Shown in pieces: positions 17,308-18,802 of a DNA stretch of 20,833 nucleotides (position 1 is the first letter of the stretch; each line of letters begins with the position of its first letter). Source of the stretch: a phage. The position numbers and the translations under genes were made by a program. The stretch lies in assembly GCA_012060505.1 (NCBI GenBank), contig GCA_012060505.1_3027.1. One strand, given 5' to 3'. The notes beneath the pieces are model-generated. The model did no database searches. It was not told the origin of the DNA and was given only the letters and a program-made list of their open reading frames with translations.

Positions 17308-17889
17308 TCATTTATATACTGATTCCGTAAGGGTTGTTACTTCATCTATTTTATACCAATGCGTTTCAACCATTTCACGCTTGCTTATATCATCAAGAAA
17401 ACTTACATCTAACTGAACCGTTGAATTAACACGATGCCTTTTAACGATGCGGGAAACAACTACTTCATCCGCATAAGGTAATGCAGCATATAACAGAGCA
17501 GGCCCGCCAATTACACTTACTTTGGAATTCTGATCAAGCATAGTCTCAAATGGTGCATTAGGGCTTGACACTTGAATTTCGCCACCAGAAATGTAAGTTA
17601 TATATTGCGCCCAAGTAATATAGAAATGTGCTAAATCGCCGTCTTTAGTTACAGGATAATCACGCTCAAGGTCACACACTACAATATGTCTACGACCTGG
17701 AAGTAATGTAGGTAATGACTGGAACGTTTTAGCACCCATAATCATAATTGTGCCTTCAGTACGAGCTTTAAAATTCTGGAGGTCCTTTTTAACTCGTCCC
17801 CATGGTAAACCATCACCTAAACCGAATGCTAATTCATTAAAGCCTTCGACCGTTTTAGTTGGAGAATAAGCGAATATCAATTTAATCAT
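17308..17889 (-). CDS. frd: Dihydrofolate reductase, 193 aa
   Basis: [30 protein letters not shown]... matches recollected T4 Frd; TAATG overlap with upstream ORF. Confidence 0.9.
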
Positions 17890-18134
17890 TACGCAAAACC
17901 CCTTTCAAGAAACCATTCAGTGGCTTTATTAGCATCAAAGAATAATTCTTCATATGTCTTTTCTTTGTTTTCAAAAACTGTCACCCAAACGCGTTGACAT
18001 TCTCCACAGTATTCTTCTGACATACTCAAAGCGTCAGAAAACATTTCATTAAATTCATTTAAATCGGGATTATGCAATGCGTTAAAAATTGCATAATCGA
18101 ATTCATCATTCATAAATTCAAATACAAAAATCAT
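17889..18134 (-). CDS. Hypothetical acidic protein (81 aa from ATG at 18134; ORF-track start 18146)
   Basis: ATG at 18134 forms an ATGA overlap with the upstream stop and has a GGGAG Shine-Dalgarno. Confidence 0.5.
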
Positions 18135-18490
18135 ATTATCTCCCATTGAAAAGAGTCATGAGCATATCCGCTAGCGTCAATCATTTTAACTAAAGTTACC
18201 ATTCCTCTGTTAACTGCTTGCGCGATTTCATCAAAAACTTCGTCACTATCATCGTAAAGATCATTAAAAAGTTCTAACACGTTCTTCTGAACTTTTAATT
18301 TACGGCCGACAATTTCGCCTACAGTAAATTCGTTTCCGCCAAATCCAGCGTAAAATGTAATTACACCCATTAACTGGCTTTCACGAGAATCTATGTCGTG
18401 TGATAAATTAATAAAAGCCGTCCCAGGCGCGGTTTTAAGTTGGCAACGAATTTTTACTTGGGTAATTCCAGTTATATGAATGTTAGACAT
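18131..18490 (-). CDS. Hypothetical protein, 119 aa
   Basis: ORF track; ATG preceded by GAGGAAA. Confidence 0.55.
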   Translation of the reverse strand: MSNIHITGITQVKIRCQLKTAPGTAFINLSHDIDSRESQLMGVITFYAGFGGNEFTVGEIVGRKLKVQKNVLELFNDLYDDSDEVFDEIAQAVNRGMVTLVKMIDASGYAHDSFQWEII

Positions 18491-18500
18491 AATATTTTCC

Positions 18501-18743
18501 TCAGACAGACTTTTTCACAATTTTCCAATCAGCTTTAAACTGATCAACGTCAGAATGGTAAATCCAGAATCCTGCGCTTTCTCCGTCTTCATAAAGAGGA
18601 CATCCATCGCATTCATCTTCCCATCCCATATCACGTAAAAGATGTTCAGCTTTTTCAATGAGTTCAGAATCTTTACCGATGATATTAAAATACCATTTAC
18701 CTCTAACTTCTGAATCTTTAATGCTCTGGCGTTGTAATCTCAT
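18501..18743 (-). CDS. Hypothetical protein, 80 aa; first gene behind an early-type promoter
   Basis: ORF track; ATG preceded by GAGGAG; promoter GTTTAC-N18-TGaTACTAT about 30 bp upstream. Confidence 0.55.
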   Translation of the reverse strand: MRLQRQSIKDSEVRGKWYFNIIGKDSELIEKAEHLLRDMGWEDECDGCPLYEDGESAGFWIYHSDVDQFKADWKIVKKSV

Positions 18744-18765
18744 TTTATTCTCCTCAGTAGTTGAT

Positions 18766-18802
18766 AGGGTAATAGTATCACACTACTACCCTGTTGTAAA
18801 CA
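18766..18802 (-). promoter_or_regulatory. T4 early-type promoter upstream of the three-ORF cassette 17889-18743
   Basis: Minus strand aaaaataattGTTTAC-18 nt-TGaTACTAT; inverted repeat AGGGTA...TACCCT flanks the -10. Confidence 0.6.

Follow-up and report, generated by a model that had tools for sequence, protein, structure and literature searches.

A hairpin-embedded early promoter and four coupled genes in the probable frd.1 transcription unit of a T6-type Tequatrovirus

Introduction

The promoter-early stem-loops (PeSLs) of T4-type phages (Arbiol 2010, PMC2839356; Comeau 2014, PMC4122927) provide the closest comparison for the element described here. In the published description, a stem-loop overlapping the promoter is among the commonest positions, the stem-loops were found to have terminator or attenuator activity and to block read-through in reporter assays, and the ORFs flanked by PeSLs are known to move (PMC2839356, PMC4122927). 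The PeSL promoters of PST and T4 follow the consensus TTTACW-N17-TAYWAT (PMC4122927). In addition, GoF and MotB.1, together with Frd.2, have been described as a family of LSm-like early proteins in T4 (PMC12152347).

A 20,833-nucleotide stretch of phage DNA (contig GCA_012060505.1_3027.1 of GenBank assembly GCA_012060505.1; hereafter the window) was analyzed here with respect to a promoter-led group of three small ORFs next to frd, which a sequence-only reading had put forward as a possible source of host-takeover or anti-defence functions. We conclude, with a probability of about three in four, that this cassette is the ordinary frd.1 early transcription unit of a T6-type Tequatrovirus, composed of a hairpin-embedded promoter and four coupled genes, and that T4 is a deletion derivative of this arrangement.

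Results

Gene map of the 32 to td region

The 2.7 kb surrounding the cassette was found to be 96-97% identical to many Tequatrovirus (T4-like) coliphages, with 676 matching records, and the frd region displayed 95.7% nucleotide identity to the frd region of T4. The whole gene neighbourhood, from 32 to td, was encoded on the minus strand and included the following features:

19873-20781, minus strand: 32, single-strand DNA-binding protein
19497-19748, minus strand: frd.3 (PF05798)
19066-19452, minus strand: frd.2 (PF03197)
18804-19106, minus strand: upstream ORF, 100 aa as listed (phrog_4423)
18772..18800, minus strand: early promoter (consensus scan)
18766..18792, minus strand: hairpin or inverted repeat enclosing the -10 (folding)
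18501..18743, minus strand: ORF1 = frd.1, 80 aa (DUF5417, PF17438; phrog_1254)
18131..18490, minus strand: ORF2, 119 aa (DUF7247, PF23905; phrog_3566)
17889..18134, minus strand: ORF3, 81 aa (phrog_3183)
17909..18432, minus strand: 524-bp segment absent from T4 (BLASTN blocks against T4)
17308..17889, minus strand: frd, dihydrofolate reductase, last coupled gene (annotated frd in relatives)
16941-17288, minus strand: 115-aa ORF (phrog_1928)
16035-16895, minus strand: td, thymidylate synthase, intron-less

The three coupled ORFs of 80, 119, and 81 aa that had been read from the letters, and the TAATG leading from the last of them into frd, were thus all recovered where they had been placed. The genes were found to be tightly joined: (i) the ORF1 stop codon is followed by 10 nt and then the start of ORF2, which has its own Shine-Dalgarno sequence; (ii) ORF2 and ORF3 overlap at an ATGA, with a GGAG 7 nt upstream of ORF3; and (iii) ORF3 and frd overlap by one base at the TAATG. 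For ORF3 we use 81 aa, compared with 85 aa in the mechanical ORF list, which starts from an upstream ATG. All three products were calculated to be acidic, with pI values of 4.9 (ORF1), 4.9 (ORF2), and 4.05 (ORF3, net charge -13). The ORF at 18804-19106, which appears to have been counted among the frd.x genes by the sequence-only reading, is probably an 86-aa gene starting at ATG 19064 rather than one of 100 aa; phrog_4423 covers its residues 15-100, and it is 95% identical to the 84-aa gp251 of SP18.

An early promoter enclosed in a hairpin

The promoter upstream of ORF1 was composed of a -35 element TTTACA at 18800-18795, a 17-nt spacer, and an extended -10 element, TGATACTAT, at 18780-18772, in which the TG occupies 18780-18779 and the -10 hexamer TACTAT 18777-18772. 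The pattern TTTACA-N14-TGNTANNNT was detected four times in the window, each time on the coding strand, compared with 0.01 matches in shuffled sequence, where none of 100 shuffles reached four. The same core promoter and hairpin were found upstream of frd.1 in T4, with one substitution in the spacer; the T4 GenBank records examined carry no annotated promoter features. On the basis of its elements, we infer a T4-class sigma-70 early promoter with a predicted start near A18765. On its upstream side, the TAA of the 18804-19106 ORF (18806-18804) ends 3 nt before the -35; on its downstream side lie GAGGAG (18755-18750) and the ATG of ORF1 at 18743.

When folded, positions 18792..18766 formed a 12-bp stem with a 3-nt loop at -15.2 kcal/mol (z = -3.1), and only 1 of 200 shuffles folded as well. 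The early-type promoter with a palindrome around its -10, as originally proposed, is therefore borne out by both the pattern count and the stability of the stem. The other three early-type promoters in the window were without a hairpin (z = -1.3, +0.08, and -0.25). A hairpin enclosing the -10 upstream of frd.1 was identified in eight phages of seven genera, this one included, with stems of 10-14 bp, energies of -14 to -19 kcal/mol, and z-scores of -2.8 to -6.4. The arms of the stem differed by genus (GGGTAGTAG/CTATTACCC, AGGGCTAT/ATAGCCCT, GGAGCTAT/ATAGCTCC, GGGTTAT/ATAACCC, and GATAGGGTA/TACCCTATC), and the right arm, CCCTATCAA, was kept in sequence in most genera. When counted in a fixed register, 74% of cells paired, compared with 39-56% with a slid partner, and four pairs changed on both sides; as 17 of 500 shuffles reached the observed number of double changes, the covariation is modest, which is attributable to the stem shifting register between genera. 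The hairpin was not called by the terminator scan because it has no U tract. Since the predicted start (~18765) is where the stem ends, the hairpin would form only in RNA reading through from upstream or in DNA.

Identity and distribution of the three ORFs

ORF1 was matched to PF17438 over residues 1-78 (E = 1.4e-33; 115.4 bits, gathering threshold 23.9) and to phrog_1254. Its identity to T4 frd.1 was 97.1% at the nucleotide and 98% at the protein level, over 80 aa and with a dN/dS of 0.08; its position between frd.2 and frd is the same in T4, and its counterparts are annotated as frd.1 in RB51, AR1, and T6. Judged by homology and position, ORF1 is the orthologue of T4 frd.1. The earlier proposal that all three ORFs are additional to the T4 gene content consequently stood for ORF2 and ORF3 and fell for ORF1, with the search against T4 returning an orthologue for one of the three ORFs rather than for all of them. 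Frd.1 was the most broadly distributed of the three proteins, with 1418 phage records that included Klebsiella siphophages, and displayed the conserved motif W..CDxCP.Y.DG.G.GFWI, which contains a CxxC. In T4 and about 200 relatives, the promoter and frd.1 are set apart by a further 63 bp that the window is without and that encodes an unannotated hydrophobic ORF of 22 aa.

ORF2 was assigned to DUF7247 (PF23905) over residues 1-114 at 121.6 bits (cut-off 27) and to phrog_3566 at E = 2e-46. Its equivalents include RB51ncORF237c, ar1_245, and T6 AXN58272 (RB51ORF237), and it was present in 466 GenBank phage records (about 240 alleles in Tequatrovirus), with protein identities of 100% to phage ECP52 (the closest), 90% to T6, and about 80% to AR1. 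The family is small; an exhaustive profile search of 1.84 billion proteins yielded only 10 clusters when grouped at 50% identity. One of these, a 634-aa protein, has six repeats similar to the C-terminal helix of ORF2 (DEIxQAVNxGM); this was judged to be a coincidence of helix motifs, the repeats probably being helix-turn-helix repeats, and not a domain fusion. In Moonvirus, Karamvirus, and Gelderlandvirus, the DUF7247 gene was found to follow the Frd.1 gene directly, with the two genes abutting or overlapping; in Klebsiella phage Roth01 they are separated by an annotated 29-codon ORF. The synteny of the pair thus extends over five genera, namely Tequatrovirus, Moonvirus, Karamvirus, Gelderlandvirus, and that of Roth01. 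DUF7247 was also detected in Phapecoctavirus, where no Frd.1 homologue was found among the neighbouring ORFs tested. SP18 gp249 was rejected as a member of the family, as BLASTP placed it in the RB51ncORF236c family. A structure model of moderate confidence was obtained for ORF2, with five β-strands followed by helices.

ORF3 was matched over its full length (residues 1-81) to the 80-position profile of phrog_3183 (E = 5.2e-41), and no Pfam family was matched. Its equivalents are RB32ORF231c, ar1_244, and T6 AXN58271; of the 470 phage records with ORF3, 436 were at ≥90% identity, and the protein identity to T6 was 95%. In Gaprivervirus, Mosigvirus, and Karamvirus, the gene just upstream of frd was found to encode a more distant relative (25-37% identity), and the family, as extended by profile search, thus directly precedes frd in four genera, Tequatrovirus included; Edwardsiella phages carry further relatives. 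In Moon, Roth01, and S16, the ORFs at the position of ORF3 were examined and found not to be homologous to it. The AF2 model of ORF3 was very confident (pLDDT 96.3) and displayed a ββαββα arrangement; a structural search found no characterised relative, and BFVD returned the ORF3 family only. In one metagenomic ORF, ORF2 and ORF3 were fused in frame.

Thus, the profile searches and structure prediction that had been suggested placed all three ORFs in families and found no resemblance of ORF2 or ORF3 to characterised proteins, and the implication that the arrangement is unusual was not upheld, with ORF2 and ORF3 each occurring in about 470 GenBank phage records, including those of T6 (both) and T2 (ORF3).

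Pairwise dN/dS values were 0.02-0.21 for frd.1 (leaving out the RB51 rows, which were in the wrong frame), 0.12 for ORF3, 0.04-0.18 for frd, and 0.23-0.66 for ORF2. These ratios indicate that all three ORFs are under purifying selection. Together with the protein-family matches, values well below 1 identify ORF1 to ORF3 as real genes and not chance ORFs. ORF2 was the fastest evolving, with a non-synonymous divergence 6-10 times that of its neighbours; its higher dN/dS could reflect relaxed constraint instead of an arms race.

Deletion in T4 and variation among relatives

By BLASTN, positions 17303-17908 of the window corresponded to T4 145104-145709 and positions 18433-18757 to T4 145704-146018. 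T4 is therefore without positions 17909-18432 (524 bp), which hold most of ORF2 and nearly all of ORF3. The 71-bp spacer that remains between frd.1 and frd in T4 (T4 145,691-145,761) was found to keep (i) the Shine-Dalgarno sequence, ATG, and 16 codons of ORF2; and (ii) ~20 nt from the end of ORF3. In sequence, the remnant is ATG-YVIEIIQVSIRFQLK-stop, which translates as MYVIEIIQVSIRFQLK followed by the stop, compared with MSDIHVTGIAQVSIRCQLK at the start of ORF2. The junction falls at TTAAAA / TTGAAA, where short TT(A/G)AAA repeats provide 6 bp of microhomology, and this scar was detected in 17 of 378 matching records, namely T4 and its derivatives. Because the beginning of ORF2 and the tail of ORF3 both survive, T4 is a deletion derivative, and the junction is a scar rather than an empty site. 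ORF2 and ORF3 are old, ancestral accessory genes of the Tevenvirinae that were lost by T4 alone via a 524-bp deletion.

The interval was also found to vary among other relatives. Of the classical T-evens, T6 has the order frd.1-ORF2-ORF3-frd, T2 has frd.1-ORF3-frd, and T4 has neither ORF2 nor ORF3. RB32 likewise has frd.1-ORF3 and is without ORF2; RB51 and SHBML-50-1 have frd.1-ORF2, a 30-codon remnant of ORF3, and an unrelated 113-aa ORF; and SP18 has frd.1, the 113-aa ORF, and then an ORF3 homologue. The 18804-19106 ORF was absent from T4 and T6, such that three genes of the 32-frd interval (ORF2, ORF3, and this ORF) are missing in T4. For this interval, T4 is an incomplete reference for T-even gene content, and the "extra" ORFs of its relatives represent the ancestral state.

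Proposed function and alternative explanations

Searches for a function were performed at several levels. Sequence searches of the PDB, run with each of the three proteins singly, returned noise only, as did profile searches started from alignments of ORF3 and of Frd.1; NCBIfam and PADLOC scans of the cassette proteins gave no hits; and a literature search on frd.1, DUF5417, DUF7247, and the RB32/RB51 ORF names yielded nothing relevant. No sequence or structural link between the cassette proteins and characterised takeover or anti-defence proteins was detected in these searches. The T4 antitoxin Dmd (PDB 5hy3_B) differed in its strand and helix counts, displayed 6% identity, and ranked 14th behind RbcS-like domains; for a small α/β sandwich, a match of this kind is no better than noise and gives no evidence of homology.

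We propose that host RNA polymerase would start at ~18765 immediately after infection and run through frd.1, ORF2, ORF3, and frd. In read-through RNA from the frd.3/frd.2 unit, the hairpin would form just past the upstream stop codon, where, in line with the reports on PeSLs, it may attenuate transcription or stabilise the 3′ end of the RNA. The three products are predicted to be small, soluble, acidic, and dispensable early proteins without a catalytic motif, which most likely bind a host or phage macromolecule in stoichiometric fashion, as takeover, counter-defence, or regulatory factors. ORF2 and ORF3 are regarded as dispensable because T4 is without both and T2 and RB32 are without ORF2. 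Small, acidic, dispensable early binding proteins are thus the most likely class for the three products; this class is drawn from size, charge, timing, and dispensability, features that fit most T-even early ORFs. As the fastest evolving of the three, ORF2 would be the best candidate for a host-facing role.

A more specific role for ORF2 and/or ORF3 would be that of counter-defence proteins that neutralise host immunity early in infection, with host-specific selection accounting for their patchiness. This explanation is in keeping with the early promoter, the small acidic products, the patchy occurrence in close relatives (T4 with neither, T2 with ORF3, and T6 with both), and the 6-10 times higher non-synonymous divergence of ORF2. 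We nonetheless consider it unlikely, as no characterised anti-defence protein was matched, the similarity to Dmd (6% identity) is at noise level, ORF3 is 95-99% identical across 414 records, unlike an arms-race gene, and no mention of ORF2 or ORF3 was found in the literature. A takeover or counter-defence role with a previously undescribed fold or target is viewed as similarly tentative; if true, the loss of ORF2 and ORF3 in T4 would account for some of the ways in which T4 is known to differ from T2/T6-type phages in host range and in sensitivity to defence, and the metagenomic ORF2-ORF3 fusion would hint at joint action. Coupling to frd could instead mean that ORF3, and perhaps ORF2 and Frd.1, are partners of the folate/thymidylate enzymes, with the coupling setting the stoichiometry and the proteins binding DHFR or the dNTP-synthesising complex. 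Though genes of the ORF3 family overlap the frd start codon in four genera, and every member of the Tevenvirinae examined has the block between gene 32 and frd-td, T4 makes functional DHFR with neither ORF2 nor ORF3; unrelated ORFs are proximal to frd in Moonvirus, Gelderlandvirus, and Roth01; DUF7247 occurs in Phapecoctavirus with no frd annotated within the 5.3-kb region examined; and synteny says little about function in phage genomes that are inherited vertically. A folate partnership is therefore held to be still more doubtful than counter-defence.

The plasticity of the region, which is found in several configurations, and the known movement of PeSL-flanked ORFs would suit the recent arrival in this lineage, between frd.1 and frd, of a mobile cassette such as a PeSL mini-circle or moron. 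However, remnants of both genes (the 5′ end of ORF2, the 3′ end of ORF3) persist in T4, the Frd.1-DUF7247 order is common to distant genera, no promoter or stem-loop separates frd.1, ORF2, ORF3, and frd, and the difference from T4 is bounded inside coding sequence at the 6-bp microhomology. Given the T4 remnants and the synteny in outgroups, recent acquisition is essentially excluded. With respect to the promoter, the inverted repeat may act on DNA rather than as an RNA hairpin, either as a dimeric regulator's operator or through a cruciform that affects opening of the promoter. The -10 lies within the repeat, transcripts from its own promoter would include only its last base or so, and the right arm CCCTATCAA is the same in most genera, all of which would agree with a DNA element. 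By contrast, the arms vary by genus while their complementarity is kept, which is a signature of nucleic-acid structure and not of a protein-binding site, and PeSL stem-loops blocked read-through in reporter assays (PMC2839356, PMC4122927). Action on DNA is accordingly judged improbable, at about the level of counter-defence, and the reading that we prefer is that of an ordinary frd.1 early unit whose hairpin would act in read-through RNA.

Two proteins emerge here as candidates for functional screens: both are conserved, well folded, dispensable, and early, and one has a very confident model without a characterised relative. T4 offers a natural knockout background with a defined scar for restoring ORF2 and ORF3, though the practical value is modest.

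Comparison with known systems

Compared with T6 and AR1, the gene order frd.1-ORF2-ORF3-frd, the lengths of 119 and 81 aa, and the overlaps were identical; the ORF2 of the window is another allele, with no difference in kind. The cassette is a real but ordinary feature that is already known: hundreds of genomes with it have been sequenced and annotated, it has entries in Pfam and PHROGs, and its regulatory element is of a published kind. With regard to the LSm-like GoF/MotB.1/Frd.2 family, Frd.2 is encoded just upstream in the window, and ORF2 is likewise predicted to have five β-strands and helices; the N-terminal five-strand Sm/SH3-like barrel of that family was not detected in ORF2 by structure comparison.

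The PeSL description differs from this locus in two respects: (i) no second copy of the hairpin was found in the window, and repeated copies that flank and exchange variable ORFs are thus not seen within it; and (ii) the loss of ORF2 and ORF3 in T4 did not use PeSLs, its endpoints being within coding sequence. The differences from T4 in the 86-aa upstream ORF and the micro-ORF do abut the hairpin-promoter element. In other respects the locus was found to resemble the PeSLs: the promoter, TTTACA-17-TACTAT with a TG, fits TTTACW-N17-TAYWAT; a stable stem-loop overlaps the -10; a stop codon lies upstream in an AT-rich stretch, with a Shine-Dalgarno sequence and ATG downstream; and the region is plastic, with relatives differing by insertions and deletions. 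Overall, the promoter and hairpin match the published PeSL architecture, from which attenuation at this locus is suggested by analogy, and they supply a further instance, across genera, of an early promoter set inside a hairpin.

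ORF2 divergence and a fusion with ORF3

In comparisons with AR1, RB51, and SHBML-50-1, ORF2 (18131-18490, minus strand) was found to vary widely among Tequatroviruses (64-100% protein identity), with dN/dS reaching 0.66, whereas the flanking frd.1 and ORF3 were far less divergent (95-99% identity). The alleles of ORF2 also differed by a 6-residue indel. Such divergence points to an exchange of alleles, to a relaxation of constraint, or to diversifying selection. On one T4-like metagenomic contig (Logan SRR30535882; L021 3001-3591), ORF2 and ORF3 were fused in frame into a product of 196 aa (P0017): the stop codon of a short ORF2 allele has been lost, and the frame continues via LIGDN into ORF3. 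Because it was found on one contig only, this fusion may be tolerated by the phage or may stem from a sequencing error. The C-terminal helix of ORF2 (FDEIAQAVNRGMVTLVKMI) was also similar to the repeat core (AEKxRIVDEIIQAVNNGMTLKEA...) of P0048, a 634-aa protein of the representative library that has repeats of about 60 aa, six of them in tandem. P0048 probably consists of helix-turn-helix repeats, and its likeness to the ORF2 helix is likely a coincidence.

Neighboring genes and regulatory elements

Residues 41-61 of Frd.1 (DUF5417; 18501-18743, minus strand) were found to carry W-x3-C-D-x-C-P-x-Y-x-D-G-x-G-x-G-F-W-I, which includes a CxxC. This motif was almost invariant from T4-likes to Klebsiella siphophages, and it could be a metal or redox site. 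Additional features were identified as follows:

16035-16895, minus strand: td, intron-less, junction at 16346/16347
16941-17288, minus strand: 115-aa ORF (phrog_1928, RB32ORF229c) between frd and td
18804-19106, minus strand: ORF 5′ of the frd.1 promoter, pI 9.0
19799..19771, minus strand: frd.3 promoter, TTTACA-17-TACTAT with TG
19850..19832, minus strand: gene 32 terminator hairpin, then a T run, upstream of the frd.3 promoter
L003 (T4 region) 6016-6084 = T4 NC_000866 146015-146083, minus strand: 22-codon hydrophobic ORF, unannotated (MFAPYIMAAVMLVCLYLLIKAC)

The ORF at 18804-19106, absent from T4 and T6, is basic, while its neighbors are acidic. Its true length is probably 86 aa with the start at ATG 19064, which lies one base past the frd.2 stop; residue 15 of the longer frame is where the PHROG profile begins, as does the 84-aa homologue in SP18. 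The region 19771-19850 (minus strand) is a second composite of terminator and early promoter, differing in arrangement from the frd.1 element.

Comparison with T4

T4, AR1, and ECO4 carry the 22-codon ORF between the frd.1 promoter and frd.1, with GGAG positioned 7 nt 5′ of it, and the segment containing it was present at at least 95% identity in 197 phage records. By comparison, the frd.1 leader of the window is 63 bp shorter than that of T4 and lacks this ORF (between 18744 and 18771). Where the window has the 115-aa ORF, frd and td of T4 overlap; the annotation of RB51 mentions a 9-bp repeat as flanking. Homologues of this ORF occupy the same position in T2, T6, Moon, PS49, and Roth01; therefore, T4 has the reduced genome at frd-td too. 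The td gene of the window is without the T4 group I intron that carries I-TevI (T4 143547-144563).
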